Assembly (NCBI GenBank): GCA_017478105.1
Contig: JAFVEF010000037.1
Coordinates: 5,945 to 69,944 of the forward strand
Length of the DNA: 64,000 nucleotides
Reading direction: 5' to 3'
Source of the DNA: Bacilli bacterium
GTDB lineage: Bacteria; Bacillota_I; Bacilli_A; RF39; UBA660
Shown here: positions 1,247 through 55,623 of the stretch, piece after piece
Layout of the letters: every line of letters begins with the position of its first letter
Position numbering within the stretch: position 1 is the first letter of the stretch
The notes under the pieces: generated by a model
Database searches by the model: none
Told to the model about the DNA's origin: nothing
Seen by the model: the letters and a program-made list of their open reading frames with translations, nothing else
Made by a program: the position numbers and the translations under genes

Positions 1247-1343
1247 AATACCACCTAAAACAATTATACAGTAAATAAAAAAACAATAAAAGTATTTTCT
1301 TGATATAAACAATTATTTACGTTAAAATAATAATGGTGATAAT

Positions 1344-2249: not shown

Positions 2250-2281
2250 AAAAAGAAAATGTATCAATCGATACATTTTTA

Positions 2282-3565
2282 TTATCCTATTCTAAAAGCC
2301 GGTGAGACACCGAGAGGATTACTAGCACTGACATAACTCCAAAAGCCATTGTTGTCAACACTGTAGAAAGCGTAAGCATAATAAGAATAAGCCGAGCGCA
2401 GCCACCACCAATAATTAGAACCATTTCTTTGCTTAATAGCCCCTGAATAGTTTGATGTTGTGACATTTAAACCTGCATAATAATCTAATTGTCTTGTATT
2501 ATTATATGCTGTATCTCGATAGTCTATTCCATCATATTTTTTTCCATCTACATCTTCCCATACTTCATGTGTTGATAAAAAATATAGTTTATTAGTTGAG
2601 GTAAAGTTAGTCTCTCCTGTACTTGCTGCATGTCCTGATACTACTGTTGTATCTATTATTCCATTTTTTAATTCTGTTGGTAGTGCATTATAAATATCTG
2701 TATTTACATATAATCTCATGGAACTTGATGGCCAGCCACCTACATTTGTACTTGTTGAATTCATATTATGAATTGATATAATATCTGCAAACTCTAACAC
2801 AAATCCGCACGCTGTCTGAGAAAAGCCAGTAATAGAACACTCACTTGGAGTTGATCTGTTTGCGATCCTTAAAGTATGTGTTTCAAACGTTCCCATATCT
2901 ACTTCTTTAGTACTTCCTACTGTATAATAACTTGGTATTGTATTGTTTTTAACATTATTTACAATAGTTTCCCATGAATCATTTTTAAATGATGATCTTA
3001 TTACCGCATTACTATCACTTTGGACATATGTTACTGAAAATGATAGATTTAGTGTTTGAGCACCTTCTGGTATATCTGATACACTAATATCTTTCTTATA
3101 ACCTACATGTACTTTATATTTTTCAGATGTGTTTGCTGCTAGTAAATGATTAGGTGCTATATCTATTCCATCTTCATATGATACTTTGTATTCTAAATAA
3201 TTAGGAAGGGTTGTTATTTCTGTACCATTTAATTTATTTGATATTACTGATACCATTCCATCTATTGTTCCGGCATTAACTGCATCTACTGTAAATTCAT
3301 AGTATTCACCTGGAATAGTTAATGTTACTGAATAGTTTACTGTAGTTTTAATTGTATCAATAGTTGGAGTAGTTGCTGATACACTTCCTGATTTAACACT
3401 TACATTCTCCCAATGTATATCCCAAGTAGGTGCACTTATTTCTGATGATCCTAATATATTTAGATTACTACTTAATATAGCATATCCTATTGATACTACT
3501 AATAACATTATAATTAGAATCATATAATTTAATTTTCTTTTATTTTTATTATAACTATATCTCAT
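2282..3565 (-). CDS. Surface protein: shared N-terminal module plus C-terminal DUF6273-like domain
   Basis: The ORF track starts at GTG 3580. ATG 3565 (MRYSYNKNKRK...) sits behind AAAGGGGTGA. Hydrophobic anchor followed by SIGYAILSSNLNILG. C-terminus has WWWLRS...GVSPAFRIG. Paralog of 11283-12530. Confidence 0.7.
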   Translation of the reverse strand: MRYSYNKNKRKLNYMILIIMLLVVSIGYAILSSNLNILGSSEISAPTWDIHWENVSVKSGSVSATTPTIDTIKTTVNYSVTLTIPGEYYEFTVDAVNAGTIDGMVSVISNKLNGTEITTLPNYLEYKVSYEDGIDIAPNHLLAANTSEKYKVHVGYKKDISVSDIPEGAQTLNLSFSVTYVQSDSNAVIRSSFKNDSWETIVNNVKNNTIPSYYTVGSTKEVDMGTFETHTLRIANRSTPSECSITGFSQTACGFVLEFADIISIHNMNSTSTNVGGWPSSSMRLYVNTDIYNALPTELKNGIIDTTVVSGHAASTGETNFTSTNKLYFLSTHEVWEDVDGKKYDGIDYRDTAYNNTRQLDYYAGLNVTTSNYSGAIKQRNGSNYWWWLRSAYSYYAYAFYSVDNNGFWSYVSASNPLGVSPAFRIG

Positions 3566-3584
3566 ATAAAATAAATTCACCCCT

Positions 3585-5900
3585 TTAACTAATTAGACTT
3601 CCTTTAACTACATTTCCAACAGTATATCCCTGGTAAATCGTATTTACAATATCATTAATATTTGTTACTTCACTAGTATAGTTAACTGTTACCTTACAAC
3701 CGGATTTTACTGACGTAGTATGAAAACAATTAGTAAACTCAGATGGCTTTTTGTAAATATTAACTGTAGCTTTTGCACCTTGTGCATAATAAAACATTGC
3801 ATCAATATTATCTGCATAAACTTTAAAAGTTCCGATACTTCTCCAGTCATTAGACTCACGACCAGCACAATAAAACATTAATCCCATATTTGTAACTTTG
3901 GATGTATCCCAATTTGATAAATTACCTATATTCCATGTTGTTGCATAATATCCTGCATTTGCAAACATACAATACATATCAGTAACATTAGAAACATTCC
4001 AATTTGATAAGTCCCCAATAGACCATGAAGAAGTATTTTCACCAGCGCAACTAAATAATGAATTCATTGTAGTTACTTTTGATGTATTCCATCCTGACAA
4101 ATCGCCAACATACCACGTATTAGCATATCTACCAGCTGAACTAAACGTACATTTCAAAGTAGTTACATTAGAAACATCCCAATTTGCTAAATTACCCAAA
4201 TTAAATGAGGTTTTAGCATTACACCCAGCAGAACAAAACATATAAGACATATTAGTAACTTTTGAAGTACTCCAACTTGACAAATCACCCAAATTAAATG
4301 AGGTTCTAGCATTATACCCAGCATATGCAAACATATAAGACATATTAGTAACTTTTGTAGTACTCCAGTTTGACAAATCCCCCAAACTAAAAGTTTCAGT
4401 CACACTATATCCAGATTTTTGAAACATCGCAGACATATTTGTCGCTTTAGAAGTATCCCAATTAGATAAATCACCAATATTCCATGTTGTAGCAGTATAA
4501 CCAAGCCCCTGAAATGTCATTAAAAAATTACTAACTTTACCAACATTTCAATTATTAAGTGTTCCAATACTAAATGAAGTTGCCTGATAAGCAGCATTAT
4601 AAAACATTCTTCTCATATTTGTAACGCTTGAAACATTCCAGCTTGATAAATCACCTATGCTCCAAGTTGTGGCATTTTTACCAATACAATTAAATGTATC
4701 AAACATGTTAGTTACATTTCCTGTATTCCAACTGGTTACATTAATTTGAAACGACGTAGTATTATACCCTAAATCCTCAAATAAATCTTGCATGTTTGTA
4801 ACTTTTGATACATTCCAATTTTGAAATGTCCCACCTGTCCAACTACTTGCACTATAGCATGCATCTAAAAACATAGCAGACATATTAGTAACATTTGAAA
4901 CATTCCAATTCTCAAAACTTCCTGCATTCCAACTGGTCGCATCATGTCCAGCATTAGAAAACAAATTTGACATATTAGTAATTCCTGATGTGTCCCAACT
5001 TGAAATATTACTAACCGTATAACTACCAACAGAATATCCAGAATAACTAAACATATAAGCTAAACTATTTACATTACTTATATTTAAATTAGCCGCATTA
5101 AAATTTTCTAATTGTTTTAAATAATACGTATAATATGTTAAGTCTGATGCGAGTACTGCTCCCTCTGAAGATCCAATTACTATTTCATATTTACTATCAC
5201 TATCACTATCAAAATACCAGGCCTTTATAGAACCATTTTGTTTTACTGATACATCCCATGAACCGATTGCATTATTTGGAACAGTATTAGTAGTAGTAAA
5301 AGATATTGTTTCAATATTTAAACTATTAATTGGTCCACCTAACCAATTATATCCTGCATCAGCATCAGATTTTCCAGTGTTTCCAATCATCATATTTAAA
5401 ATATAATTATTAAAATTAAAAGTTAATTCATAGTTTAATGTCTTAGTAGAAGGAACTGTTGTAACTGAACTTTTATATTTAAAAGTTATTGTAAAAGTAG
5501 TTGTGGCATTACCAAGTATCTTATCTCCTAAACTATAACCACTTATTGTATATTCAATATTTGAATTAGAAAAAGTAGTATTTGTTATAGAACTAATCTC
5601 TTTATCTAAAGCTACATAATTCTTTGTATTAACTGTAATAGTAACTGTAGAATTCAAATTAGGTAAACTAATTCCACCACTTATACTTGTATAATCAAAA
5701 GAAACTGGAGTTGTCTGAGCTCCACTATTAGTTACACCATTTAGACTAGCAGAAGTAACACGAATATCTGCAGCCTTCATAAACGCCACATCTCCACTTA
5801 TCTTTAAATTAGTAGAAATTGCCGAATATCCAATAGACATGAAAGTAGTTAATACTAATATCACAAAAGCAAATAAATTGTAGTAATGATATTTTCTCAT
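3585..5900 (-). pseudogene. DUF285/BspA-family repeat surface protein split by one in-frame TGA
   Basis: ORFs 4548-5900 and 3585-4520 share one frame (5900 and 4520 are both 2 mod 3). The only stop between them is TGA at 4548-4550. Repeats of the type SxWDTSxVTNMSxMF continue on both sides. Confidence 0.75.
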
Positions 5901-5982
5901 AGTATGTACTCTCCTATTATATTAATAGTATCGTCTATATTTTTTTTGTCAATAATATCAATTACTTTAGATATTTAATTTA

Positions 5983-6014
5983 CAAAAAAAATAACTTTCT
6001 AATTTGAAAGTTAT
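5983..6014 (-). terminator. Rho-independent terminator after ftsZ
   Basis: On the minus strand: ATAACTTTC-AAATTA-GAAAGTTAT followed by T8, starting 14 nt after the ftsZ TAA. Confidence 0.7.
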
Positions 6015-6027
6015 TTTATTATTTATT

Positions 6028-7149
6028 TTAAAAATTACGATCTCTTAACCAAGATGGAACACTTAAGTCTTGATGATTATTTACAACAGGTTCTGCTGGT
6101 TTATCATCTAAAACTTCTGGTTGATATGAATAATCTTCTCTAGGTTGTCTTCTCACTGTATTTGTAGGATAACTCTCCTCTTCTTTTTCCTTTTTATTAG
6201 CCTTATCAAAACCAGTAGCAATTACTGTAACAATAACTTCATCACTTAAATTTTCATTGATAACAGAACCAAATATTGTATTAATATCAGTATTAGCAGC
6301 ACTTCTAACAACTTCAGCAGCTTGTTCTGCTTCAAATAAAGTTAAGTTAACTCCACCAGTAATATTAATAATAGCATCAGTAGCACCTTCAATAGATGTT
6401 TCAAGAAGTGGAGATGAAACAGCTTGTTTAGCAGCTTCTAAAGCTCTATCTTCTCCCATACCAATACCAATACCAATAATAGCACGTCCACTCTTCTCCA
6501 TTACAGCTTTAACATCAGCAAAGTCTAAGTTAACAAGTCCAACAACAGCAATTAAATCAGAAATAGATTGTACACCTCTACGTAATACATTATCAACTTC
6601 TTTAAATGCTTCAAGCATTGGAGTAGATTTATCAATTATTTCTCTTAATCTATCATTTGGAATAACAATTAATGTATCGACATGTTTCTTTAATTCTTCA
6701 ATACCTGCTAAAGCATTTTCCATTCTTCTTTTTCCTTCGAATGAAAATGGTTTAGTAACTATAGCAACTGTTAAAGCTCCAAGACCTTGTGCAATTTCAG
6801 CAACTATAGGAGCAGCACCAGTACCAGTACCTCCACCCATTCCACAAGTAATGAAAACCATATCAGCACCAGCCAAAGCTTCTTCAATTTCCTTTTTAGA
6901 TTCAACTGCTGATTCTTTACCTACTTCAGGTTTTCCTCCAGCACCTAATCCATCAGTTAAAGTTGCTCCAATTTGAATTTTAACATCAGCCTTACTCGTA
7001 TTTAATACTTGCAAATCAGTATTAGCAGCAATAAATTCTACGCCTTTAACTCCAGATTCAACCATTCTATTGACAGCGTTTCCACCACCGCCACCTAAAC
7101 CAATGACCTTTATTTTGGCCAATTGATCCATTTCTAATCCGCCTATCAT
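6028..7149 (-). CDS. ftsZ: Cell division protein FtsZ
   Basis: [10 protein letters not shown] and [10 protein letters not shown] tubulin signature. C-terminal tail is [20 protein letters not shown] lies 7 nt before the ATG. Confidence 0.97.
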
Positions 7150-7161
7150 ACTTTTTCCTCC

Positions 7162-8397
7162 TTAATGTTCGAAAAAGTGTCCAAACACTTTACTTAGCAT
7201 ATTTTCATTTGTAACACTAGAATCAACTGAAACAATCGCATCAATCTCATCCTTACTAAACATATTATAATGTTTACCACGTAATTTTAATTTATCATCA
7301 AAATATTTAATAGTACCATATGAACTACTAAATTTATTATGTCTTACTCCCATAGTAGTTATATTACATACTTTTGCAACAAAACCAAATTCCTGTTCAA
7401 CAACATTACTAAAACCAGCCAATTCAGTTAAGCCACCTGTTACAATTATATAACGTATTTCTCTATTTGTTAAGTTTTTTATTTCATTTTTTGTTAGTTT
7501 AAGTATTTCTCTAATACGAGCCTCTACTACTTTAGATACTCCTAATTGATTTAACTCTTTAACAGTACCATCTTCCATATTAGCTTTATACAACTCATTA
7601 CTATCAGCATAACTAGCTAAAGCCATACTAAACTTTTCTTTAATATTATTAGCTTCTTCTAAAGAAGTTTTAAATACATAAGATATATCTTTAGAAACAT
7701 TACTACTACCTACTGGTAATAAACTATTCTTAATTTGAATACCTTTATTAAATACACTTACATTAGTAGATTCTTCTCCAATATTTATAATAGCCCCTAC
7801 TAAATCATCATATTTTCTATCTTTAATAGCAAAATAATCTCCAACAGAAGAAAAACAAACATCTACTGTTTCTAAACCAGCTAATTTTAATACTTCTAAT
7901 ATTCTATATAAAGGTTCTTTAGGAGTAGTACTAACAACAACTCTTGTATCTAAAGTACTTCCTTTCATACCTTTAGGATCACTAACACTCTTATTATCAT
8001 CTATTGTAAAATGAATAGGCATACAAGAAACTAATTCATCACTTGAAAAATCCATTCCTTTAATTGCATCTAATAAACAATTACTTACATCACTACCAGT
8101 TATTTCATTATAATCTATAACACTACAACTACCAACTACAATATCCATTTTACATTGACTTGATGGAATACAAGCAACTACTTTAGATACTCTTACTCCA
8201 AGCATATCATCTATTTTCTTTAAAGCTACTTTAATACTATTAACACTAGCTTTGCTATCTATAATAAAACCATCTTTAATTCCCTTAGAAGGACTACTAA
8301 CAGATGCTAAAACATTAAAATTATCATTAACTTTTTCACATACAACTATTTTAATAGAATTAGTTCCTAAATCAATACAAGAATATACATCTCTCAT
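7162..8397 (-). CDS. ftsA: Cell division protein FtsA
   Basis: 411 aa, actin-like (IDLGTNSIK...). Sits immediately upstream of ftsZ. AGGAGG RBS. Confidence 0.93.
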   Translation of the reverse strand: MRDVYSCIDLGTNSIKIVVCEKVNDNFNVLASVSSPSKGIKDGFIIDSKASVNSIKVALKKIDDMLGVRVSKVVACIPSSQCKMDIVVGSCSVIDYNEITGSDVSNCLLDAIKGMDFSSDELVSCMPIHFTIDDNKSVSDPKGMKGSTLDTRVVVSTTPKEPLYRILEVLKLAGLETVDVCFSSVGDYFAIKDRKYDDLVGAIINIGEESTNVSVFNKGIQIKNSLLPVGSSNVSKDISYVFKTSLEEANNIKEKFSMALASYADSNELYKANMEDGTVKELNQLGVSKVVEARIREILKLTKNEIKNLTNREIRYIIVTGGLTELAGFSNVVEQEFGFVAKVCNITTMGVRHNKFSSSYGTIKYFDDKLKLRGKHYNMFSKDEIDAIVSVDSSVTNENMLSKVFGHFFEH

Positions 8398-26346: not shown

Positions 26347-26528
26347 AAAAAAAAGTCAAGATAGATCGTCGTCGGCCAACGATAAAACCTAATCTTCTGA
26401 TCAGGTGGGTGTTCATACGCTATCATTAGGATCCTTAAACTAGTAAGTATTCAACACCGATAGCTGTTCCGAACTCCCGTATCGTTATTTTAGTCGGTTT
26501 TATATGTGCCTGTTCGAATCTATCTGAC
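26347..26528 (-). ncRNA. ssrS: Candidate 6S RNA (ssrS/bsrA-like), about 182 nt
   Basis: GC-enriched island. Promoter TTGTCG (26564-26559), 18 nt, TATAAT (26540-26535). Predicted rod: closing stem GUCAGAUAGAU.../...AUCUAUCUUGAC plus AUAAAACC/GGUUUUAU; roughly 17+17-nt central bubble; inner helices GGGAGUUC/GAACACCC and GCUAUC/GAUAGC. Ends in U8. Lies in the aspS-tcdA interval, where B. subtilis 6S-1 maps. Confidence 0.6.
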
Positions 26529-26615
26529 AACTTTATTATACTATACTATAAATATTTTCGACAAGTCCTTTAACACTATTTTACAACTAATCATACAATA
26601 CTCTAGGTGATTACT

Positions 26616-37826: not shown

Positions 37827-38723
37827 TTAGAGTTTTGCTCTAGGAAAAGTATGATAATATACTTCTTTTAATCTATCTGTTGTAACGTGAGTATAAATTT
37901 GAGTTGCTTTTATACTCTCATGTCCCAATAATTTTTGAACTGTAATCAAGTCACACCCTTGGTTTAATAAATGAGTCGCAAAACTATGTCTAATCATATG
38001 TGGAGATATTTTTTTATTTATACAAGTCTTTTTTATTAACTGATCAAGTACATATCTTACTCCTCTTTCAGTTATTTCATAACCATTACTATTTAAAAAT
38101 AATGAATCTATATTATTACAATTTAATCTTTCTCTTCCATCACTTAAATATAAGTTTAAGGCCTCTAAACAATACTGTCCAAAACAAACAACTCTTTCTT
38201 TATTACCCTTACCAAGTATAATAATAGTCTTATTATTAAAATCAATATCAGAGACTTTAATATGAACTAATTCCCCAACACGAACTCCAGTAGCATAAAG
38301 CATTTCTAAAATAAGCAAATCTCTTTGTCCCAAAGGAGTTCTCTTATCAGGTACTAAAAACAACTCTTCCAATTCATTATATTCAAAATATCTTGGTAAC
38401 TTTTTACTTTTTTTAGGACCATTTACTAGAGAAAAAACATTACTCTTAATAAATCCCTCATTACAAAGATATTTATAAAAACCTCTAAGTGAACTAAGTT
38501 TTCTATTTATAGTTGAATTATTATCTTTTTTTTCATCCTTTAAATACATTAAATAAAATCTAATATCACTATATTCAACATCTAAGAAAGATAACTCTTC
38601 TCTTTTTAGAAAATCAAAATATTCTAATATATCATCTTTATAATTTAAAACAGTATAAGAAGAATAATTCTTCTGATATTTTAAATAATCTAAATAACTA
38701 TTCAATTCTTTCAAAAATATCAC
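37827..38723 (-). CDS. xerC: Tyrosine recombinase XerC/CodV-type
   Basis: 298 aa. N-terminal SAM-like core-binding domain. Catalytic ATGVRVGEL, HMIRHSFATHLL, LLGHESIKATQIYTHV. Downstream of topA as in Bacillus. Confidence 0.7.
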   Translation of the reverse strand: MIFLKELNSYLDYLKYQKNYSSYTVLNYKDDILEYFDFLKREELSFLDVEYSDIRFYLMYLKDEKKDNNSTINRKLSSLRGFYKYLCNEGFIKSNVFSLVNGPKKSKKLPRYFEYNELEELFLVPDKRTPLGQRDLLILEMLYATGVRVGELVHIKVSDIDFNNKTIIILGKGNKERVVCFGQYCLEALNLYLSDGRERLNCNNIDSLFLNSNGYEITERGVRYVLDQLIKKTCINKKISPHMIRHSFATHLLNQGCDLITVQKLLGHESIKATQIYTHVTTDRLKEVYYHTFPRAKL

Positions 38724-46057: not shown

Positions 46058-47038
46058 ATGAAAAGAAAAGTAATATTAACCGTTGCAAATGAAGAACAAA
46101 AACAAATTGCCAAGGAATATATAAAAAAGCAAAATAACAGCTTATTTCATAAATACACCTTTTATATATTAATAAGTGCTAATGGTACTGGAACTGCCCT
46201 ATTAGATGTAGTCAGATGGAAAGAAAAAAACAACACCAAAGAACCAATATTAGTAATAAACTCTGGAGGAAAATCTACAAGAACTCCATTATTTTCTAAA
46301 AGAGGTAAAATAATGATTCCTCTTCCCTCTACCAATAACAAAAACAAAATGATTTTAGATGAATTATTAGAATTATATTCCAAAATAGAAAATAAAATAA
46401 AAATACCTGGCGTACTTATAATGACTGCTGATTCAATATGTGAAAATGTCAACATAACAGAAGATATAACAGAATCATGTGCAATATCTATTATGGCCGA
46501 TAAAGAATATGGTCCAGACCATGGTGTTTTCATAAAAGAAGGTAATTATGTAAAAGGTTTTCTTCATAAGAAAAGCTTAGATATTTTAGAAAAAGAAAAT
46601 GCAATAATCAATAATAATATAATGATTGATACTGGAATTTATTTTATTAAAGAGGAACATTTAGACTTATTATATAACAACTACAGAAAAGATTATCAAA
46701 ACGACCTATTTTTAGATTTTTATACTCAAATGGTTCAATATATAATAGATAAAGATAAAATGCTATTGCTTCTATTAAAAGATGCAATCTTCTATCATTT
46801 AGGAAATTATAAAAACTATTTTGATTACCTTCAAAAAAATAATATAAAATTTATAGATTCGATATATCCACCTAAATATAATGATAAAAAAGTCTTTTTC
46901 TATCACTCAAAGATTTCTGAAAACGCCACCATAGAAGATAATGTTGCTATCTTTAATTGTGATATTAATGAAGGAACAATTAAAGAAAACACTATTGTAT
47001 ACAAAGACAAAGATGAAATCATATATGACAAATTCTAA
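46058..47038 (+). CDS. Putative sugar-nucleotidyltransferase (fucokinase/Fkp N-terminal-like)
   Basis: 326 aa. LVINSGGKSTRTPLFSKRGKIMIPLP resembles the SGGxSxRxP...GK..PLP signature. Weak, motif-level only. Confidence 0.35.
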   Translation: MKRKVILTVANEEQKQIAKEYIKKQNNSLFHKYTFYILISANGTGTALLDVVRWKEKNNTKEPILVINSGGKSTRTPLFSKRGKIMIPLPSTNNKNKMILDELLELYSKIENKIKIPGVLIMTADSICENVNITEDITESCAISIMADKEYGPDHGVFIKEGNYVKGFLHKKSLDILEKENAIINNNIMIDTGIYFIKEEHLDLLYNNYRKDYQNDLFLDFYTQMVQYIIDKDKMLLLLLKDAIFYHLGNYKNYFDYLQKNNIKFIDSIYPPKYNDKKVFFYHSKISENATIEDNVAIFNCDINEGTIKENTIVYKDKDEIIYDKF

Positions 47039-47062
47039 TAATCACACAAACAAAGAAAATTA

Positions 47063-47815
47063 TTATCTAATAATTTTCTTTATTGTTTTACATTTTTCTT
47101 TTTGAAATTCATCAACTCTTCTAATATCTCTTTTTAAAACATTTAATCCTCTAGATCTTAAACTAGACTCTAATACAGAAACTAAATCAATATCTAAATA
47201 ATTCTCTAAATATTCAAAAAACTCTGGATAAAAATAACCCAGTATTTTAAAATCATCAATACTATAAAAATTATATATATCATTTTTATAAAAAAATTCT
47301 TTATTTATATGATTTAAATTTAATGAATATTCAAAATCATATAAAGGACTTAAATGAATACCTTTATTAGAGTATTCAAGCATAATATTATCACTATATC
47401 TATCTATCTGTCCCATGTAAAAGTCTAGTGCAAATAACTTTAATAATTCTCTTTCCAAATCTTTTTTATTATTATCATCCTTTGTCATATTTAAAAGACC
47501 ATAAAAATTATTTTTATATTCTGAAAAATCAAGTTCATTAATTTTATAATAATCACAATTATCTTTTCTAAAATCATATGATCCAATTTCATAATAATAA
47601 TTATATTTTTTTAAATCCTTATATAAACATTTATTTTCATTTGCATAATCATCTTTTGTTAATACAAAATAATGAGCTGAAGGAATATTATTCATTTTAC
47701 ATAATTCTTCACCAACAAATTCAGAAATATTAAAAAATTTTGTAAAGACTTTATCTTCATCAAAATTTACAATTCTAATCTCTGTAGAATCATTTAAATA
47801 ATCTGTAGCTTTCAT
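47063..47815 (-). CDS. HipA-C-like putative kinase-fold protein
   Basis: 250 aa. FALDFYMGQIDRYSDNIML....LSPLYDFEYSL resembles the HipA_C catalytic and activation region (D..x.N ... aP.YD). Start/stop overlap with rbgA. Confidence 0.35.
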   Translation of the reverse strand: MKATDYLNDSTEIRIVNFDEDKVFTKFFNISEFVGEELCKMNNIPSAHYFVLTKDDYANENKCLYKDLKKYNYYYEIGSYDFRKDNCDYYKINELDFSEYKNNFYGLLNMTKDDNNKKDLERELLKLFALDFYMGQIDRYSDNIMLEYSNKGIHLSPLYDFEYSLNLNHINKEFFYKNDIYNFYSIDDFKILGYFYPEFFEYLENYLDIDLVSVLESSLRSRGLNVLKRDIRRVDEFQKEKCKTIKKIIR

Positions 47816-48666
47816 TATAATCTATCAAAAGTAATATTCTTAAAATAACCACTCTTAACATCATTTATTATGATGTCAGAGACTCTATCATAATCAACAA
47901 TACCACCCTTTGATAATGCACCTCTCCTCTTTCCAATTGTCTCATATGCTTCAATAAAATCATCTTCAATACTACTAATACCATATCTTTCATATAATTT
48001 ATCTGGATACAATGTATATAGTTTTTTCAATATAAAACATGCAATTTGATCTTTATTTAAAATATCTTCTTTTATAGATGAAAATGAAGCTAATATGTGG
48101 GCATTTTCTTGATTCTCTAATTTTGGCCATAATATACCAGGAGAATCTAATAATTCTAGATCTTTATTGATTCTAATCCAAGATAAAGATTTAGTAAATC
48201 CAGGAGTATTCCCAACACCAACAGCTTTTTTACCGACTAGTTTATTTATCAAAGTACTTTTACCAACATTAGGTGCACCCACAATTAAACATCTACATGA
48301 TCTAGTCTTTAATCCTTGCCTTAGACGCCTAGAATTAATGCTATCCATAATCTTATTAGTTTCTTCAAATAATTTATTTGTATTACCATTAATCAAATCA
48401 ATTGGAACAACTTTATATCCTTCTTCTCTATACTTATCTAAGATCTTATTAGTTTCAACAACATCACATAAATCCATCTTTGTAACTATCAAAATTTTAG
48501 GTTTATCTTTTATCAAATCATCTATATCAATTATTTTAGAAGAAATTGGCATTCTCCCATCAATTACTTCATAAACAATATCAATAAGATTTAATTTTTC
48601 ACTAATCTCTCTCTTAGTTTTTGCCATATGTCCAGGAAACCAGTTTATATTAGTTTTATTATCCAT
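47815..48666 (-). CDS. rbgA: Ribosome biogenesis GTPase A (YlqF)
   Basis: MDNKTNINWFPGHMAKTKREI..., circularly permuted GTPase (TKMDL, GAPNVGKST, DSPG). ATG 48666 lies behind GGAGTG. Confidence 0.93.
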   Translation of the reverse strand: MDNKTNINWFPGHMAKTKREISEKLNLIDIVYEVIDGRMPISSKIIDIDDLIKDKPKILIVTKMDLCDVVETNKILDKYREEGYKVVPIDLINGNTNKLFEETNKIMDSINSRRLRQGLKTRSCRCLIVGAPNVGKSTLINKLVGKKAVGVGNTPGFTKSLSWIRINKDLELLDSPGILWPKLENQENAHILASFSSIKEDILNKDQIACFILKKLYTLYPDKLYERYGISSIEDDFIEAYETIGKRRGALSKGGIVDYDRVSDIIINDVKSGYFKNITFDRL

Positions 48667-48805
48667 AGGAATCACTCCATTTCTAATCAATTATAGCATA
48701 AAAAAGACGAAATTTATTATAGTTTCGTCCATTTTTAAGTCATTTTTATGTTCTTAGATTTTACGTAATCAAAACTTTATTGGTTTTTACTTGGACATAT
48801 GGAAA

Positions 48806-49552
48806 CTATAATTTCTTACAACTAGTAATCTCTTTATTATAACCATTTTCACATGCTAATGATATTTGTCCATTTGAAATTAAGTATGTTTCGCCATAAA
48901 TACTAACGTTACCATCATTATCAATCAAAATATGACTGCCATTGCATTGTCCGTATATTATTCTATTATTTGATTCTGATAATATTGCATTTCTTTGGTA
49001 TTTTTCAGATTCATCAAAATTAGAATCATCTAATATAAAATGAGGTTCAATATTAATATTGGTTAATCCTAAACCTTGGAAAAATTCTGGTTCTGATTTT
49101 TCCATTTCTTCAGGACTATTAAATACATCATCTGCCATATTAATTGCTCCAGCACTTTGTCCAATAATTAATCCATTAAAGTTTTCTAGTTTTTCTCTTA
49201 AATGAATTTTTTTAAAAAATTCATTTTGAATATATGTATCTCCTCCACTTAAGAAAATCATATTTGCTTTATCTATGTATTCTTGAGCATTGTCTACTGT
49301 TGAACTATCTAATACTAAGTATTCATTAAAAGAAATACCAGATAATTTAAGTCCTTCAAATAATAATTTAGTATATAATTCTATCTTTTCTTTATCATCA
49401 GGAGAAGATGCAATAAATAATATTGCGTTATTACCATTCAAACTATTTTTTATTTGATTGACAATTCCATTAGAATTATCTAATTCATTAGTTACTTTTT
49501 CTCCATTTACTTTATGATAATGTTTAAAATCACTCATTAATATTTTTATCAT
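48806..49552 (-). CDS. Peptidase S51 / type-1 glutamine-amidotransferase-like protein (dipeptidase E family)
   Basis: 248 aa. FLSGGDT and nucleophile elbow IIGQSAGAI. Confidence 0.6.
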   Translation of the reverse strand: MIKILMSDFKHYHKVNGEKVTNELDNSNGIVNQIKNSLNGNNAILFIASSPDDKEKIELYTKLLFEGLKLSGISFNEYLVLDSSTVDNAQEYIDKANMIFLSGGDTYIQNEFFKKIHLREKLENFNGLIIGQSAGAINMADDVFNSPEEMEKSEPEFFQGLGLTNINIEPHFILDDSNFDESEKYQRNAILSESNNRIIYGQCNGSHILIDNDGNVSIYGETYLISNGQISLACENGYNKEITSCKKL

Positions 49553-49590
49553 AATTTACCTTCTTTCACGTGTTTATAAAATTATTTCAA

Positions 49591-49703
49591 TTTTTTATTA
49601 TTAGGTTGCATAATCACCATATTAATTCCTCAACTATTTTGAATTAAAAATAGTCATTTTTTACTAATTTTTGGCTATGTTAACATATTTTTATATAAAA
49701 CAG
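49591..49703 (-). repeat. Conserved promoter/leader module, copy 3 (upstream of the S51 gene)
   Basis: Shares blocks with 54005-54121: AAAAATATGTTAA(C/A)AT, AGTAAAAAATGACTATTTTT, AGGAATTA, GGTGATTA(T/C)GC(A/C)ACCTAATAATAAAAAA. Confidence 0.6.
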
Positions 49704-49721
49704 GAACTATCCGTGGAATTT

Positions 49722-50570
49722 TTATTTTTCTATTAATTTATCTTCATCTATATATCGGTAGTTTAAAGAATTGTCTTTAGAAATTGCATTTAATCCTGTA
49801 ACTTCTTCATAAAACTCTTTTGTTTTCTTCGCAACACTACCACCCTTTTTAGCAACTTTTCTATTTTCAGAAAGGCCAATTGGTTTTTCTCTTTGAGCGA
49901 TATGTCTTGTCGTTAGTTCTCCCAAATCTGTCAATGCAACTTCAATATCAGTCATATTGTCTCTTAAATTTTCCTTATGAATACCTTTATATGATTTATA
50001 CTCTTGGGCATTCATTCCTGACCATTCTTTATAGATCTCATTTGTTAAAATACCATATTCAAAGTCTTTTGTAATTCCTCCATCTTTCCAAATATCAGTT
50101 AATTTATTTCTATCTAGTGTTGCTTTTATTCTAGCTTCAATCCATTTATCATCATATCCTTTTTTTCTATAATAGTCTATCGCTCTCTTAATAGCTTTTT
50201 CAGGATCAAATACTTCATCTATTCTTTCGCTACCTAACTGAGCTAACCATAATTTAAATGGTTCAGCTTTGGGAGAAGGAACTGATTCAATCAATCTTAG
50301 AATACCTTTCGTATCAAGTGTATCTGTTTCTCTCATTTTTCCATCTTTAGCTTTTAATTTCAACTGCACGATTTTTTCGTGCACTTCACTCCCTTCATCA
50401 ATTAACTTTCTTTTTAAGTCACTCCAGTAGTTTCTTGGAATATTAGCATCAGTTAATGCAGCTATTACATCTACGACACTAAAGTAATAATCTTCTTTTT
50501 CAGAATCCCAGATGCTTCTAATTTCTTTTCCTTCAAATAGATTTGTAATTGTAGATAATTTATTATTCAT
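49722..50570 (-). CDS. BRO-N domain-containing protein
   Basis: 282 aa. N-terminus FEGKEIRSIWDSEKEDYYFSVVDVIAALTD...LDTKGILRLIESVPSPKAEPFKLWLA is typical of the Bro-N fold. Confidence 0.65.
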   Translation of the reverse strand: MNNKLSTITNLFEGKEIRSIWDSEKEDYYFSVVDVIAALTDANIPRNYWSDLKRKLIDEGSEVHEKIVQLKLKAKDGKMRETDTLDTKGILRLIESVPSPKAEPFKLWLAQLGSERIDEVFDPEKAIKRAIDYYRKKGYDDKWIEARIKATLDRNKLTDIWKDGGITKDFEYGILTNEIYKEWSGMNAQEYKSYKGIHKENLRDNMTDIEVALTDLGELTTRHIAQREKPIGLSENRKVAKKGGSVAKKTKEFYEEVTGLNAISKDNSLNYRYIDEDKLIEK

Positions 50571-50856
50571 TTAATTCCCCCTAACAATAATTTTTCATCT
50601 AATAATATTATACTATATTATTTATAATATCAAACGTTTTTTCGGTATAAAAATATATAATATAAAAAATTAAAATAAGGGGAGGTTCACAGTACAATCT
50701 CACTACTCAACTTCTACCAAAAAATGCATATTTTTTTATTAGTAAACCATAAAAAAAACACTTTTTAGTGAATTTTTTGCAAAAAAAGTGTAAGATCTAA
50801 ATATTAAAAATTTCGTTGAAAAATAAAGAAATCATATAAGGGGTCCACAAAAACAA

Positions 50857-50904
50857 TTACAACCAATTGATTGCGGTATTATTAAGACTTTTTTCGTTTT
50901 TCAT
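50857..50904 (-). repeat. Diverged decoy of the rbgA 5' end (MKNEKSLNNTAINWL*)
   Basis: 15-codon ORF whose N..NT.INW mirrors rbgA MDNKTNINW. Begins 1 nt after the stop of the VOC pseudogene. Confidence 0.45.
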
Positions 50905-50905
50905 T

Positions 50906-51255
50906 CTAATCACTTCCTTTAGCTTTAGTTGTTAATTCTATATGATTTCCTTCACTATCAATAAATTCAACTACATAATTATTATCTATTTTTGTTAAAG
51001 GAAAACAAATCTCTAGCTTTTCTATTTTTCTTTTTAGTGTTTCTATACTATCTACTTCTATACTTGGCAAACAATTACTTCCAAAGGTATGATGCTCATT
51101 CATTTTTTGATATGCAAATCAAATCTAAAACCATCAACATCAAATACAGAATAAATAGAATCATTTTTTATAGGACTTTTTTCAAAAAAACTTGTATAAA
51201 AATTGATAGCTCTTTCCATATCATTAACACAAATATACAATGACTTTATTTTCAC
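50906..51255 (-). pseudogene. VOC (glyoxalase/bleomycin-resistance) family gene, frameshifted
   Basis: GTG 51255 gives VKIKSLYICVNDMERAINFYTSFFEK...GFRFDLHIKK*. The sequence continues in another frame as MNEHHTFGSN... The break is at an A6 run (about 51104-51109 on the plus-strand T-run); A7 would restore the frame. Confidence 0.65.
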
Positions 51256-51272
51256 TAACGTATCATCTCCAA

Positions 51273-52274
51273 TTAATTATTATTCTCTTCTAAATATTTA
51301 TTGTAAAACTCATCCATTGAAGAAATATATTTTTGATCTTGTATTACTCTATATTTCTCATATTCATTTTCTGCTTTTTCAATCGCTTCTTTATGTGAAA
51401 CATTGCCAGAATTATCTAGCAATTTTTTTCTTCTAAATTTTAATAAATCATCGGTTGCATTTATCCAATCCTGCATAGTCATAACATGTCTTTCTTTGGC
51501 CTCGTCTTCTGCAAATACTAAAAATATATTTGTTAAATCATTTAGCTTAGAAAGTTCTTCTTCATTCAAATAATTTTTAGCAACACTTACATCATATTTA
51601 TATATTAATCCATCAGGAGAATTTTTCCAATTAGTTAAGCCCATATGTTCTTTTTTTGAATCAGCTCTACTATATATTAATTCTGCTGCAGTATGTCCAC
51701 TAATTGCATAATGAAGCTTATTTTGTACTATTTTAAAGAATGTATATGCTTCTTCTGACTTCGAATTGTAGTCAGTTGAAGTTACAATAAATAAATCTGT
51801 TATCTTTTGATAAGACATTCTTTCACTTACACGAATTGTCTTAATTCTTTCAAGTAGTTCATCAAAGTATTTTGTATCATACTTATTTCCTCTAATGAAT
51901 CTTTCATCATTTAAAGCAAAGCCTTTTTGAATATATTCTTTTAATACTTTGGTAGCCCATATTCTAAAATCAGTAGCTTTTTTTGAATTAACTCTATATC
52001 CAACAGCGATAATAGCATCTAAGTTATATATTTTTGTTTTATAGTTTTTACCATCAGAAGCAGTTACCGAGGAATCCTCGGTAACTGAAGTTTCATCAAG
52101 TTCTTTGTCTTTAAAAATGTTTTTTAGATGTAAAGAAATATTATCAGTACTACAATCAAAAACTTTTGACATTCCTTTTTGTGTAAGCCATAAAGTTTCA
52201 TCTTTGTATATTGCATCAACAATAATATCACCATCACTATTTTTATATATCAATAAATTATTAGATTCATTCAT
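51273..52274 (-). CDS. RhuM-family protein
   Basis: 333 aa. LIYKNSDGDIIVDAIYKDETLWLTQKGMSKVFD..., IIAVGYRVNSKKATDFRIWATKVLKEYIQKGF, then a Fic/DOC-adjacent style C-terminus. Confidence 0.7.
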   Translation of the reverse strand: MNESNNLLIYKNSDGDIIVDAIYKDETLWLTQKGMSKVFDCSTDNISLHLKNIFKDKELDETSVTEDSSVTASDGKNYKTKIYNLDAIIAVGYRVNSKKATDFRIWATKVLKEYIQKGFALNDERFIRGNKYDTKYFDELLERIKTIRVSERMSYQKITDLFIVTSTDYNSKSEEAYTFFKIVQNKLHYAISGHTAAELIYSRADSKKEHMGLTNWKNSPDGLIYKYDVSVAKNYLNEEELSKLNDLTNIFLVFAEDEAKERHVMTMQDWINATDDLLKFRRKKLLDNSGNVSHKEAIEKAENEYEKYRVIQDQKYISSMDEFYNKYLEENNN

Positions 52275-52312
52275 ATTACACCATCCTTTCTATTGGTCTT
52301 GACTAGCTGTTC

Positions 52313-52410
52313 TCACCATATCAATTCCTAAGCAATTTTTACTTATAATTACCATATTACCACTATTTTTCATCAATTTTAGTAAATTATATTCTAAAAC
52401 ATGCAATATC
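52313..52410 (-). repeat. Conserved promoter/leader module, copy 2 (upstream of RhuM; more diverged)
   Basis: On the minus strand: ATTGCATGTTTTAGA...TAAAAT...GGAATTGATATGGTGA. Shares its ends with the modules at 54005-54121 and 49591-49703. Confidence 0.45.
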
Positions 52411-52457
52411 TATTTTAACTTTTCCTTTTTATTACAAGGATTTGGGAGTAGTCTTGA

Positions 52458-52505
52458 CTAAATTGTTATTAACCAGTTTATATTAGTTTTATTTTCACTA
52501 TTCAT
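52458..52505 (-). repeat. Decoy of the rbgA 5' end (MNSENKTNINWLITI*)
   Basis: Contains the 23-nt core aaccagtttatattagttttatt (52471-52493), identical to rbgA 48638-48660. Confidence 0.75.
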
Positions 52506-53491
52506 TTGGATCAACTCCTTTATCAGGCAATGATTTCATTAATAAATCAAAATCGCTTTGTAGTTCTTTCATTTCTCTTTCTCTATATATTTGAAATTCT
52601 TTTTCGGCTTTTTTTATTGTTTCTTCATGAGATACTTTACCATTACCTTCAAGTATTTTTCTTCTATTTAATAATATTTGATTATCAAGTTCTGCAACCC
52701 AATCATTCATTTTCATTGTTCTTTGTTCCAAAGCTTGTAATTCTGCAAAGTCCAAGAATTGAGATACTAATAAATTTAATCTTTGAAGTTCAATTTCTGA
52801 TAAATAATTTTTTGCTATTTTAACATCATCTATTGTTACATAATTACCTTTAAAATTAGTCATTCCAATATATGGTTTTTCGTTATCTACTCTGTTATAT
52901 ATTAATTCTGCTGCGGTTTGTTCGTGTACTGCATAATGTAATTTATTTTGAACAGTAGCAAAGAATTTTTTTGTTATTTCACTTCTAGGGTCATAATCTA
53001 CTTGTTGCATAAATATCAGTTACTTGTTGATAAAAATTCCTTTCACTAGAACGAATATCTCTTATTCTTTGAAGTAATTCCTTAAAATATCTATTACCAC
53101 CAAGACTCAATCTATTATCGTCCATAGTAAAACCTTTTTGTATATATTCATGTAATCTTTGTGTAGCCCAAATTCTAAATCTTACAGCTATATCAGATTG
53201 AACTCTATATCCTAAGGCAATTATCATATCCAAATTGTAATGGTCTATACTTCTTTTAACTTCCCTGTTACCTTCTTTTTGAACTTGCAAGAATTTCTTG
53301 CAAGTTGATTTAGGTAGTTCATTATCGTTATAAATATTATTAATATGTTGTTCTATATTCTGCCTTGTAGTTTTATAAATATCAGCAAGTTGATATTTTG
53401 TTAACCAAACATCCTCATCAATAAATTTAACATCTACGCAAGTTTTGCCATCTTTATCTTCATATATTAATACTTCATTTTTATTATCCAT
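52498..53491 (-). pseudogene. Second RhuM-family gene, frameshifted
   Basis: ORFs 52991-53491 and 52498-53010 are the N-terminal and C-terminal halves of a RhuM homologue in different frames. The break is at ...DIYATS/VDYDPRS, around 52995-53005. Confidence 0.75.
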
Positions 53492-53508
53492 AATTGCCTC
53501 CTTTACTA

Positions 53509-53958
53509 TTATTCAATATCATTTCTTCTTACAAAATCATTATATACCCAATCAGGTGCGTAATCTAAAACATATGATAATTCATCAATTAATTCTTTTT
53601 TAGTCATTGAACTAATATACTTTCGTGTTTTATTATATAACTTTTCTTGATAATCTTCATATTCTTCTTGCAATCTTTCTTGTTCTTCTTCAAAGTTTTT
53701 TGCTTCTTTTGGAAATGCAGTAAAGAATGTTGCTACTATATGCTTACATATTATTCTTTTTCCATTTGCTAATGGACAAGTACAAGTGGATTTTCTAGGG
53801 TGTGATACATCTAAATAAACGTTATAATTATTAGTACCAATTACTGTACTTGTATATTCATAATCATTTATTTTTTTCAAATTTATTATTTTATTTTTTT
53901 TATAATAATCTAATCCTCGCCAACATGAAGCACCACTAGCTGATGAAATTACACTCAT
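53509..53958 (-). CDS. SWIM zinc-finger domain protein
   Basis: 149 aa. CTCPLANGKRIICKHIVA matches CxC-Xn-CxH. Confidence 0.65.
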   Translation of the reverse strand: MSVISSASGASCWRGLDYYKKNKIINLKKINDYEYTSTVIGTNNYNVYLDVSHPRKSTCTCPLANGKRIICKHIVATFFTAFPKEAKNFEEEQERLQEEYEDYQEKLYNKTRKYISSMTKKELIDELSYVLDYAPDWVYNDFVRRNDIE

Positions 53959-54004
53959 TTTAACACCTCCATTACCACGAACTACTTTACCGTAATCATA
54001 GTAC

Positions 54005-54121
54005 TTTTTTATTATTAGGTGGCGTAATCACCTCAATAATTCCTATCACTTTTTGCATAAAAAATAGTCATTTTTTACTGATTTATATCTATTTTAACAT
54101 ATTTTTGTATTAAACATGCAA
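54005..54121 (-). repeat. Conserved promoter/leader module, copy 1 (upstream of the SWIM gene)
   Basis: On the minus strand: TTGCAT, 18 nt, TGTTAAAAT (extended -10), then a leader with AGTAAAAAATGACTATTTTTT...GGAATTATTGAGGTGATTACGCCACCTAATAATAAAAAA. Confidence 0.6.
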
Positions 54122-54160
54122 GATGTTATATCTCTCAATTCCTTATTTTATTGAAGTTTT

Positions 54161-54217
54161 CTTATGTTCTTGTATAAATCGTAATCAACCAGTTTATATT
54201 AGTTTTATTTTCATTCA
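54161..54217 (-). repeat. Decoy of the rbgA 5' end with promoter (MNENKTNINWLITIYTRT*)
   Basis: The 23-nt core at 54186-54208 is identical to rbgA. Upstream, 54218-54270 mirrors the rbgA RBS, TGnTATAAT and terminator-hairpin layout at 48667-48720. Confidence 0.75.
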
Positions 54218-54353
54218 TAGAAATCACTTTCTAATGACCAAATTATAACATAAAAGAGTAGATTCCTCTACTCTATCTCCTTGAAATACTATTAGTTTAT
54301 TTCAAAACAATTATTTGGACATCTGACAATCATTTTTCACTTAGTAATGATAT

Positions 54354-54755
54354 TTATACGTTTTCATCAAACACTGCTGTTAATTCAGTAGCCCCACTTA
54401 CAGTTATTTCTAATTCGGAATCAGTTGAATAATCCTTATTATCTTTAGTCCATTTTACAAATTTATAACCAGCATCAGCCTTACAATTAATTTTAACATT
54501 CTCTGCCTTATCAAGTTTTACATAAACTTGTTGATTTGGCCTTTCATCATTAAAATCTATTTTTCTCGCATCATCAATGTAGTATGAAACTTGTCCTAAC
54601 CCTTCAGTTTCTAATAATAAATAAATATCCCCTTTACTATCAATTACCTCTTCACTCTTATTATCTTGTTTATTATTTCTACAACCAGCCAAAACAAATA
54701 AAGAAACAAATAGCACTAAAACAACAAATAGATTAGATATTTTTTTCATATACAA
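54354..54755 (-). CDS. Lipoprotein (hypothetical)
   Basis: 133 aa. Signal peptide with lipobox LFVLAG/C. Confidence 0.7.
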   Translation of the reverse strand: MYMKKISNLFVVLVLFVSLFVLAGCRNNKQDNKSEEVIDSKGDIYLLLETEGLGQVSYYIDDARKIDFNDERPNQQVYVKLDKAENVKINCKADAGYKFVKWTKDNKDYSTDSELEITVSGATELTAVFDENV

Positions 54756-54801: not shown

Positions 54802-55623
54802 TTAAATATAACTATTTTTTTTCATAGCAATTAAATTATCAACAATCATACTAACAGTCATTGGACCTACTCCTCCTGGAACAGGAGTAATAAATAAAGC
54901 TTTGTCTTTAACACTTTCATAATCAAAATCACCACATAAAGAATTATTTATTCTGTTAATTCCAACATCAACACAAATAACACCATTCTTAACATAATCA
55001 CCAGTAATTAATTTAGGAATACCAACAGCACTAATAACAATATCAGCATTCTTTGTATATAAATGCAAATCTTTTGTTTTAGAATGACAAAGAGTTACCG
55101 TTGCATCTCTATTCTCTAAAGCTAAAGCTAATGGCTTCCCAACAATATTACTTCTTCCTATAATACAAACATTTGCCCCTTTTAAACTGATTTTATAATG
55201 TTCTAACAATTTAATGATACCTTTAACAGTACAAGGTATTATTGTTTCATTATTTATATATAAGTTATAAATATTATTCTTAGTAAGCCCATCAACATCT
55301 TTAGATGAATCAATTAATTCTACCATCTTATTAAAATCAATACCTGGAATAGGACTTTGTAAAATGATACCAGTTACTTTGGAATCATTATTAAGATTAT
55401 TTATCAATTCTTTAAGACTTTTCTCATCACCATTATCTATATGATAAAGATTAACTTTTACTCCAACAGACTCACAATATTTAATTTTATTTCGAATATA
55501 AATATCACTAGAGATATTATTACCAACTTGAATAATTGAAAGTAAAATATCTAAATCAGATACAATTTTTTTATATTCAGAAACTAACTCATCACTGTAT
55601 TTTTTTCCATCAAGCAATTGCAT
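54802..55623 (-). CDS. folD: Bifunctional methylenetetrahydrofolate dehydrogenase/cyclohydrolase
   Basis: 273 aa. VQVGNNISSDIYIRNK, GIILQSP, CIIGRSNIVGKPLA, PVPGGVGPMT. Confidence 0.93.
   Translation of the reverse strand: MQLLDGKKYSDELVSEYKKIVSDLDILLSIIQVGNNISSDIYIRNKIKYCESVGVKVNLYHIDNGDEKSLKELINNLNNDSKVTGIILQSPIPGIDFNKMVELIDSSKDVDGLTKNNIYNLYINNETIIPCTVKGIIKLLEHYKISLKGANVCIIGRSNIVGKPLALALENRDATVTLCHSKTKDLHLYTKNADIVISAVGIPKLITGDYVKNGVICVDVGINRINNSLCGDFDYESVKDKALFITPVPGGVGPMTVSMIVDNLIAMKKNSYI

Follow-up and report, generated by a model that had tools for sequence, protein, structure and literature searches.

What produced the series of truncated rbgA starts that lies upstream of intact rbgA, an essential gene of ribosome assembly, in a 64-kb stretch of the Bacilli bacterium assembly GCA_017478105.1 (hereafter the window, meaning the whole stretch analyzed)? 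[quoted passage not shown] We think it likely that positions 48640-54274 are a tandem array of four or five small, recombinase-free cassettes, built by site-specific recombination at the rbgA 5' end with the crossover in AACTGGT, and that the enzyme was most likely a large serine recombinase (LSR).

All array features are on the minus strand, and both the repeats and their anatomy can be read directly from the window. A 23-nt core (AACCAGTTTATATTAGTTTTATT / AATAAAACTAATATAAACTGGTT) occurs exactly at 48638-48660, 52471-52493, and 54187-54209, three matches against 0.02 expected by chance, with three or more in none of 100 shuffles. The third copy had previously been placed one base off, at 54186-54208, and the start of the outermost decoy at 54217 rather than 54218; the remaining starts, at 52505 and 50904 for the decoys and 48666 for rbgA, were correct. 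The functional gene begins MDNKTNINW/FPGHM (the slash marking the end of homology), decoy 1 (ATG 54218) reads MNENKTNINW/LITIYTRT before its stop, decoy 2 (ATG 52505) reads MNSENKTNINW/LITI before its stop, and decoy 3 (ATG 50904), diverged and found by the site profile at E=0.008, reads MKNEKSLNNTAINW/L and then stops. Homology between rbgA and the decoys ceases after TGGTT, beyond which the decoys have a common arm of their own, in agreement with the earlier statement that resemblance to rbgA ends after the Trp codon and that the decoys share a separate continuation.

Two aspects of that first account need revision. Four copies of the rbgA promoter had been counted, and the ribosome-binding site (RBS), promoter, and terminator of the outermost decoy are indeed present, but the terminator hairpin and extended -10 occur only at rbgA and decoy 1, decoys 2 and 3 having an RBS and start codons only, directly behind the preceding gene. 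A replacement promoter is a feature of only some cassette ends, and the majority supply no more than an RBS, an ATG, and N-terminal codons; the terminator-promoter piece of decoy 1 is also present inside the arrays of related loci L058, L059, and L083. Similarly, the tandem arrangement stands, but the three cassettes originally proposed become four or five, as the last interval probably comprises two units because its S51 peptidase gene has its own leader copy (Table 1). The first nine codons of rbgA itself (48640-48666) would derive from the last inserted unit.

How such units join rbgA is directly visible in exact breakpoints between related genomes. A 3.33-kb element encoding a RhuM fragment, an LSR, a radical-SAM protein, and DUF5680 is 99.07% identical between L132 and L136, which represent two species whose flanks and rbgA genes differ. 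Identity begins at AACTGGT/AAGTGGG, after host-specific decoys, and ends with GATTAACTGGT, ahead of each host's rbgA. It follows that the element supplied an RBS, an ATG, and 15 codons and that the crossover lies within AACTGGT. In a second pair, L127 and L131 have 3376 nt in common at 100% identity (BRO-N, LSR, S51), after which, beyond AACTGGT, L127 continues into rbgA and L131 into TGATTACGATTTAT, followed by a promoter module and a ParA/ParB element. The difference between these two loci is an insertion polymorphism at the predicted position.

Relatives were searched with one genome per species, yielding 80 loci, nearly all from metagenome-assembled genomes (MAGs) labelled Bacilli, Tenericutes, Erysipelotrichaceae, or Clostridium sp. 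CAG, relatives that we take to be RF39-like. Arrays upstream of rbgA are common in these RF39-like gut Bacilli, and L080 has ten decoy sites within 9 kb upstream of the gene. Aligned sites have about 135 nt in common, in the order RBS, ATG, core ending in AAYTGG, arm TTG-N6-ATTTAT (the Y arm), palindromic motif, and promoter-like TTGCAT...TGTTAAAAT. Their exclusive position and orientation are likewise a matter of direct observation: across 1.13 Mb, the Y-arm profile gave 41 co-oriented matches upstream of rbgA, one downstream, and one to three on the opposite strand. A separate scan, in which a 21-nt pattern was run against metagenome contigs, returned at least 120 loci, and among the matches listed, 225 of 225 sites were co-oriented, rbgA lay downstream in all 34 loci long enough to include it, and sites were spaced at a median of 963 bp (interquartile range 738-1447, n=126). 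One locus with eight sites, L203, has nine open reading frames (ORFs) from the first site to rbgA. Of the 80 MAGs, 35 have a contig that breaks off within 1 kb on the upstream side of rbgA, which may reflect the array repeats, and the array region is therefore under-represented in current assemblies.

The residues of RbgA ahead of the Trp in W[FY]PGHM form discrete classes, independent of RbgA identity and phylogeny. The sequence RNGVIP-MDNKTNINW is found again, along with the nucleotides upstream of it, in species with an RbgA 53-65% identical to that of the window, and the piece directly upstream of the window's rbgA (piece X in Table 1) has 91-95% DNA identity to L052, L059, L078, L085, and L031.

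In most cassettes the arm is present twice, the second copy (Y2) lying 100-250 nt downstream of the first (Y1) and immediately ahead of the RBS of the cargo. Y1 and Y2 co-vary (mean score 19.1 versus 14.9, permutation p<0.0005) in a local-alignment test, which replaced a gapless test of the duplication that proved too insensitive, and cassettes that lack the promoter module look as if they arose by deletion between these copies. Examples of Y2 are seen in the window at 53994-54040 and 52300-52340, at 1520-1560 in L116, and in L085 and L058, with a conserved AGGAATT-N7 preceding Y2. Within the site, TGGT is mutated in 9 of 37 internal sites of relatives, and the 24-nt core to its left is nearly invariant; cassettes with such sites may be locked. 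The mutated sites include L080 6806 and 2433, L053 1054, L032 1666, L039 7863, and L086 8930, with the variants TGC-C, TGT-C, TGT-G, and others.

We dropped the idea that the site forms a hairpin, whether a terminator or attC-like, because RNAalifold gave no consensus structure and the named 8-bp helix was 69% paired, no better than shuffles. No RNA family was found in Rfam for the conserved leader, at the gathering threshold over the whole window or at E<=1 in the region, and inspection by eye gave no clear result for dyad symmetry in the site. The promoter-like module may function as a promoter; a promoter consensus scan (54 matches against 48 expected) is uninformative in DNA this rich in AT.

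Elements that encode a recombinase do lie beside the same kind of site in relatives, as the preliminary description had anticipated, but the enzymes are LSRs with Resolvase, Recombinase, and Zn_ribbon_recom domains and not tyrosine integrases. Their co-location with the sites is directly observed: LSR genes are found less than 4 kb upstream of rbgA and on the same strand in 11 of the 34 species loci for which 3 kb or more of sequence upstream of the gene is available, either as single proteins of about 410 aa or as pairs or triplets of 520-570 aa, and in many relatives they sit in the rbgA-proximal unit. In L030, L061, L116, and L127, the left boundary of the LSR unit is the same kind of site as that of LSR-free cassettes, and the arms in the window (TTGATTACGATTTAT and TTAATAACAATTTAG) are of one family with the arms adjoining LSR units elsewhere. 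The common block of attL and attR in L030 and L061 is TGGT only, and 4 nt is short for the overlap of a tyrosine recombinase and sufficient for that of a serine recombinase. The LSR family comprises 7383 proteins at E<=1e-30. Four homologues that were inspected (P0010, P0011, P0092, and P0119), 43-76% identical to the LSR of L030, come from unrelated genomic backgrounds, and in every sufficiently long contig except L131, rbgA follows the homologue directly or after one to two cargo genes.

The LSR N-terminal domain matches TnpX (2mhc, 1.2e-27), and the protein is 39% identical to an annotated TndX. Against the NCBIfam models, scores of 86-93 bits for CcrB and 53 bits for CcrC, each with a cutoff of 900, indicate that the array LSRs are not Ccr proteins. 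A phage origin was considered and set aside, as searches of viral collections give it no support: LSR queries found one close partial relative there (L098, 72% identity, on a 4.3-kb contig), all others being at most 35% identical, and the site pattern had 0 matches.

Larger elements with serine recombinases were also seen upstream of rbgA. In L045 (positions 1-8000 of a circular 1.5-Mb MAG), a gene for a 557-aa serine recombinase is directly followed by a RhuM 3' fragment, with ParA/ParB and a tyrosine-recombinase fragment nearby; this is a different, larger element that possibly inserted into a RhuM cassette. Loci L012, L015, L018, L041, L022, L029, and L048 have larger rbgA-integrated elements with serine recombinase genes in tandem sets of two or three (566+522 aa, at times plus a short third), a Cro/CI-like repressor, and their own rbgA-type promoter, the left ends of which lie beyond the fetched DNA.

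Together, these features suggest a mechanism in which the crossover would take place inside AACTGGT, that is, within the Asn-Trp codons just before the conserved FPGHM plus one T. The 5' end of an incoming element would consist of the Y arm (TTG-N6-ATTTAT...) and then the conserved promoter-like module, its middle of one or two cargo genes, and its 3' end of an RBS, an ATG, and rbgA-like codons numbering 9-15, in some cases behind a terminator and an extended -10 promoter. Integration would join this incoming gene start to the rbgA body, so that the essential gene would stay intact; the former start would be left behind as a short decoy ORF running into the Y arm. The enzyme would most likely be an LSR of a family dedicated to the rbgA site, and the cassettes in the window would have been inserted, and be movable, only in trans. 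On this scheme, a circular cassette should have the junction X2-core-Y1, predicted as AATAGTGAAAATAAAACTAATATAAACTGGTTGATTACG, and the matching deletion junction would be X1-core-Y2. LSR-free cassettes may also move individually.

Several points weigh against integration by an LSR as the origin of this array. No recombinase of any kind is encoded within the 64-kb window, which extends the earlier statement that none was in view in the array, and it is from co-location that we infer that an LSR catalyzes the recombination. The same array is present in all contigs of the source strain, from about ten samples, with no sign of current mobility. An empty rbgA site, proposed earlier as a comparison to make, was found in none of the relatives, the lepB-rbgA gap being 3.0-7.4 kb in 9 of 9 loci that show both genes. 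L080 has a duplicated cassette (2020/5421) with conserved site sequence on both sides, and such site-bounded duplications and rearrangements could also come from homologous recombination between site sequences of 40-50 nt. The screen for tyrosine recombinases consisted of two phmmer queries, which divergent enzymes could escape, and the AACTGGT heptamer of L132 and L136 is also the right length for a tyrosine-recombinase overlap.

Among the rival explanations, the one that survives best, though we judge it unlikely, is that of a passive fossil hotspot, in which a few old integrations were followed only by homologous recombination between the 25-50-nt repeats. The invariance of the array in the source strain fits this account, as do the pseudogenes within the array, the TGGT mutations in relatives, and the conserved site sequence at both boundaries of the L080 duplication. 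What it leaves unexplained is the occurrence of an identical 3.3-kb element in two species whose flanks have only AACTGGT in common, along with the strict cross-species conservation of a non-coding site of about 135 nt. A fossil can also fit the window's array with the system active elsewhere, and to that extent the account overlaps with integration by an LSR rather than excluding it. Exact-protein look-ups of RbgA, the lipoprotein, RhuM, and BRO-N returned only the same arrangement, with no strain-level variation of the array. Because it holds two pseudogenes and mutated sites, has no LSR within 64 kb, and does not vary among samples, the window's array may be a fossil and largely fixed; in other genomes, the cassette system is demonstrably mobile.

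A second alternative, which we regard as improbable, is that a tyrosine integrase of the Tn5252/Tn5253 type built the array and that the cassettes are cis-mobilizable elements (CIMEs), remnants of integrative and conjugative elements (ICEs) or integrative and mobilizable elements (IMEs) that lack the integrase and transfer genes. The preliminary description had named rbgA as an ICE or IME target in streptococci, leaving aside which end, and the target is the 5' end of the gene, with the attB of Tn5253 formed by 63 nt of upstream sequence and the first 20 nt of rbgA (PMC6079316, PMC4701971). The target gene and position are thus the same, as these 20 nt end in ...TGGTT; the att of these ICEs also ends at the Trp codon before FPGHM, and their direct repeat spans the first codons and upstream sequence, with the N-terminus restored and the promoter replaceable (PMC6079316, PMC4701971). 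ICEs at the rbgA 5' end replace the rbgA upstream region, partial ICEs are found at rbgA in S. suis, and a 7-nt identical core is compatible with a tyrosine-recombinase overlap. However, Tn5253 and Tn5252 are conjugative elements of 20-65 kb with a tyrosine integrase and excisionase, whereas the units described here are about 1-3 kb, have no transfer genes, and are associated in relatives with serine recombinases. In the 80 species loci, phmmer with two tyrosine-recombinase queries found no such enzyme in or beside the arrays, returning only a syntenic XerC/CodV-like gene 4-10 kb downstream and the one L045 fragment, and in the elements shown to be inserted at the site, the LSR is the sole recombinase encoded. 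Pfam and PADLOC scans of all window cargo and of about 25 relatives' cargo found no relaxase, coupling protein, or type IV secretion system genes, and the TGGT that attL and attR of L030 and L061 have in common also argues against such an integrase. Nor do the uniformly small cassette size and the stereotyped 5' module form a pattern of decay. The earlier notion of decayed larger elements does not fit units that are inherently small (about 1 kb, co-oriented, and mostly single-gene) with a conserved 5' module, and for this reason they can be called CIME-like only by analogy.

The window has a gene for a XerC/CodV-like tyrosine recombinase at ~37827-38723 (minus strand), about 10 kb downstream of rbgA and syntenic in more than 25 related loci. 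That this housekeeping enzyme acts on the sites, as in Xer-exploiting elements and the dif modules of Acinetobacter plasmids, is very improbable: the gene is kept near rbgA in those loci and TAATATAAACT, within the core, loosely resembles the XerD arm of a Firmicute dif in a reading made by eye with no tool, but the linkage of rbgA, topA, and codV is an ancestral Firmicute synteny, as in the gene order of Bacillus subtilis, no dif-like 11-6-11 dyad is seen by eye in the site, and dedicated LSR genes move along with the inserted elements.

The cargo assignments made at the outset (SWIM, a split RhuM, an intact RhuM, a split VOC, BRO-N, and an S51 peptidase) agree with Pfam. PADLOC places array cargo among defence candidates and known defence families, namely RhuM (PDC-S05), BRO-N (PDC-S13), DUF1016 (PDC-S02), and an AbiP2-type reverse transcriptase, and the remaining array cargo consists of small enzymes such as GNAT, VOC, Nudix, and methyltransferase proteins. 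Cargo ORFs in the arrays run in the same direction as rbgA, and their stops usually abut the next site. The best matches to the cargo fall in distant species, where the cargo is closer than the core genes are: the intact RhuM gene has 82% DNA identity to that of L084, whose RbgA protein is only 55% identical, and the best DNA match to the window's rbgA anywhere is 77%. Genes of the S51 family turn up again in other arrays. In L122 (SRR35925718), an intact VOC gene of 117 aa occupies positions 1089-1442, at the place of the window's frameshifted copy, and the VOC pseudogene in the window is therefore recent. We also considered whether the last unit (BRO-N...S51) is the BRO-N-LSR-S51 element of L127 after deletion of the LSR, and rejected this, since the S51 of the window matches, at 54% identity, an S51 cassette of L127 other than the one in that element, and no match links the BRO-N proteins.

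Table 1. Coordinates of the rbgA-upstream array, its cargo, and its left flank in the window
Feature	Positions	Strand	Basis and remarks
rbgA (ylqF) coding sequence	47815..48666	-	ORF; Pfam MMR_HSR1; TIGR03596 YlqF equivalog, 308 bits (cutoff 208)
AACTGGT at functional rbgA (Asn-Trp codons plus T), putative crossover, attR-like	48640..48646	-	L132/L136 and L127/L131 element boundaries; end of rbgA/decoy homology
Piece X upstream of rbgA, element-borne	48667..48729	-	Hairpin 48706-48729; extended -10 TGCTATAAT 48690-48698; RBS
Degenerate fifth site, probable	~48743..48790	-	Core remnant plus TTGATTACG...AAGAACATAA; local score 29, equalled by 12 of 1776 windows
S51-family peptidase	48806..49552	-	Pfam PF03575, 2.7e-16
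Cassette leader before S51, no decoy	49580..49710	-	Promoter-like module and second Y arm; 80% identity to 53994-54116
BRO-N domain protein	49722..50570	-	Pfam; PADLOC PDC-S13, 2.6e-111; nt identity 83% to L083, 78% to L059
Site 3	50764..50920	-	RBS; decoy 3 (ATG 50904, TGG 50863-50865); diverged Y arm
VOC/glyoxalase gene, frameshifted	50906..51255	-	ORF calls, Pfam
RhuM-family protein, intact	51273..52274	-	Pfam, 6e-98; PADLOC PDC-S05; 82% nt identity to L084
Site 2 and 5' module	52275..52520	-	RBS aaaggagttgatccaa; decoy 2; core 52471-52493; AACTGGT 52472-52478; Y arm TTAATAACAATTTAG; promoter-like module; profile E=1.2e-23
RhuM pseudogene, two overlapping ORFs	52498..53491	-	ORF calls, Pfam
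SWIM zinc-finger protein	53509..53958	-	Pfam; weak PADLOC PDC-S62; 78% nt identity to L060
Cassette 1 5' module	53959..54188	-	Y arm TTGATTACGATTTAT; palindromic motif; promoter-like TTGCAT...TGTTAAAAT; second Y arm GGTGATTACGCC; nt identity 86% to L052, 82% to L080
Left boundary, attL-like	54189..54274	-	Terminator 54255-54274; TGTTATAAT 54242-54250; RBS; decoy 1 ATG 54218; core 54187-54209; AACTGGT 54188-54194
Lipoprotein gene, chromosomal left flank, outside array	54354..54755	-	ORF, Pfam
folD, left flank with lipoprotein gene, outside array	54802-55623		

Beyond the origin of this one array, we tentatively entertain a broader possibility, namely that rbgA-upstream arrays are a working gene-capture platform, a kind of serine-recombinase integron, in which a dedicated LSR would insert, excise, and reshuffle single cassettes of about 1 kb where an essential gene begins. 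RF39-like and other low-GC gut Firmicutes would have such a platform widely and would use it as a store of genes for defence and detoxification; most cassettes would bring a standard promoter-like module and a spare rbgA start that keeps the host alive, and the Y1/Y2 pair would serve as a second half-site for gain or loss of the promoter module.

Each of the known systems compared here (ICE, staphylococcal cassette chromosome, and integron) departs from the arrays in at least one defining feature. Like an integron, an array has up to 8-10 co-oriented, mostly single-gene cassettes with a site between each, small accessory enzymes and defence candidates as cargo, and duplicated cassettes. Unlike in an integron, no IntI was found within 10 kb of rbgA in the 80 loci or anywhere in the 64-kb window, the sites have no covariation-supported folded hairpin of the attC kind, and most cassettes have their own predicted promoter-like module rather than relying on Pc. 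Moreover, the array does not start at an integrase but ends in an essential gene, for which reason each cassette has to bring a spare start of that gene.

The closest working analogy is the staphylococcal cassette chromosome (SCC), in which the large serine recombinases CcrAB or CcrC, sometimes paired, act at a fixed site at the end of the housekeeping gene rlmH/orfX, giving composite tandem islands bounded by short direct repeats, many units of which depend on a recombinase supplied in trans. The arrays likewise consist of tandem units bounded by direct repeats, many of them recombinase-free, but the target is the 5' end of rbgA and not the 3' end of rlmH, so that an incoming element has to supply an RBS and start codons. 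Unit size is also far smaller, with a stereotyped promoter-like module, and the LSRs are not of the Ccr type.

TnpX and TndX, the closest named recombinases to the array LSRs, belong to small elements (Tn4451/Tn4453 and Tn5397) that excise as circles; these elements use many GA-dinucleotide targets and carry mobilisation genes, whereas here there is one fixed target at rbgA, and arrays form. CIMEs and tandem accretions, as generally described for the ICESt1/ICESt3 family and the rplL tandems of S. suis, resemble the arrays as tandem att-bounded units without recombination or transfer modules, but they are deletion derivatives of ICEs, and the arrays have no sign of ICE ancestry and a dedicated cassette architecture. 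Full-text searches of open-access papers turned up no account of cassette arrays or of serine-recombinase elements at rbgA.

To our knowledge, integrons are regarded as absent from Firmicutes, and the arrays may represent an analogue in uncultured small-genome gut Bacilli, of like size, order, and cargo type and with an apparently different class of recombinase. If single cassettes are mobile, gene capture would have been solved here convergently, and the arrays would be a ready source of compact genes for defence and detoxification, among them RhuM, BRO-N, KilA-N, DUF1016, the AbiP2-type reverse transcriptase, S51, GNAT, and VOC. The serine recombinases of about 410 aa, having a defined natural target, are candidates for genome engineering.

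Elsewhere in the window, a 6S RNA gene lies at 26350-26532 on the minus strand (Rfam RF00013, 48.9 bits), the sole Rfam family at the gathering threshold, and no tRNA genes were found in the 64 kb. On the other side of rbgA from the array, two extra genes occupy 46058-47815 between rbgA and rnhB; several relatives have rbgA directly followed by rnhB. One of the two is a 250-aa ORF at 47063-47815 (minus strand) that overlaps the rbgA stop and is split in one sample (L003/L124), and the other, a fucose-pyrophosphorylase-like gene at 46058-47038, is on the strand opposite to it.

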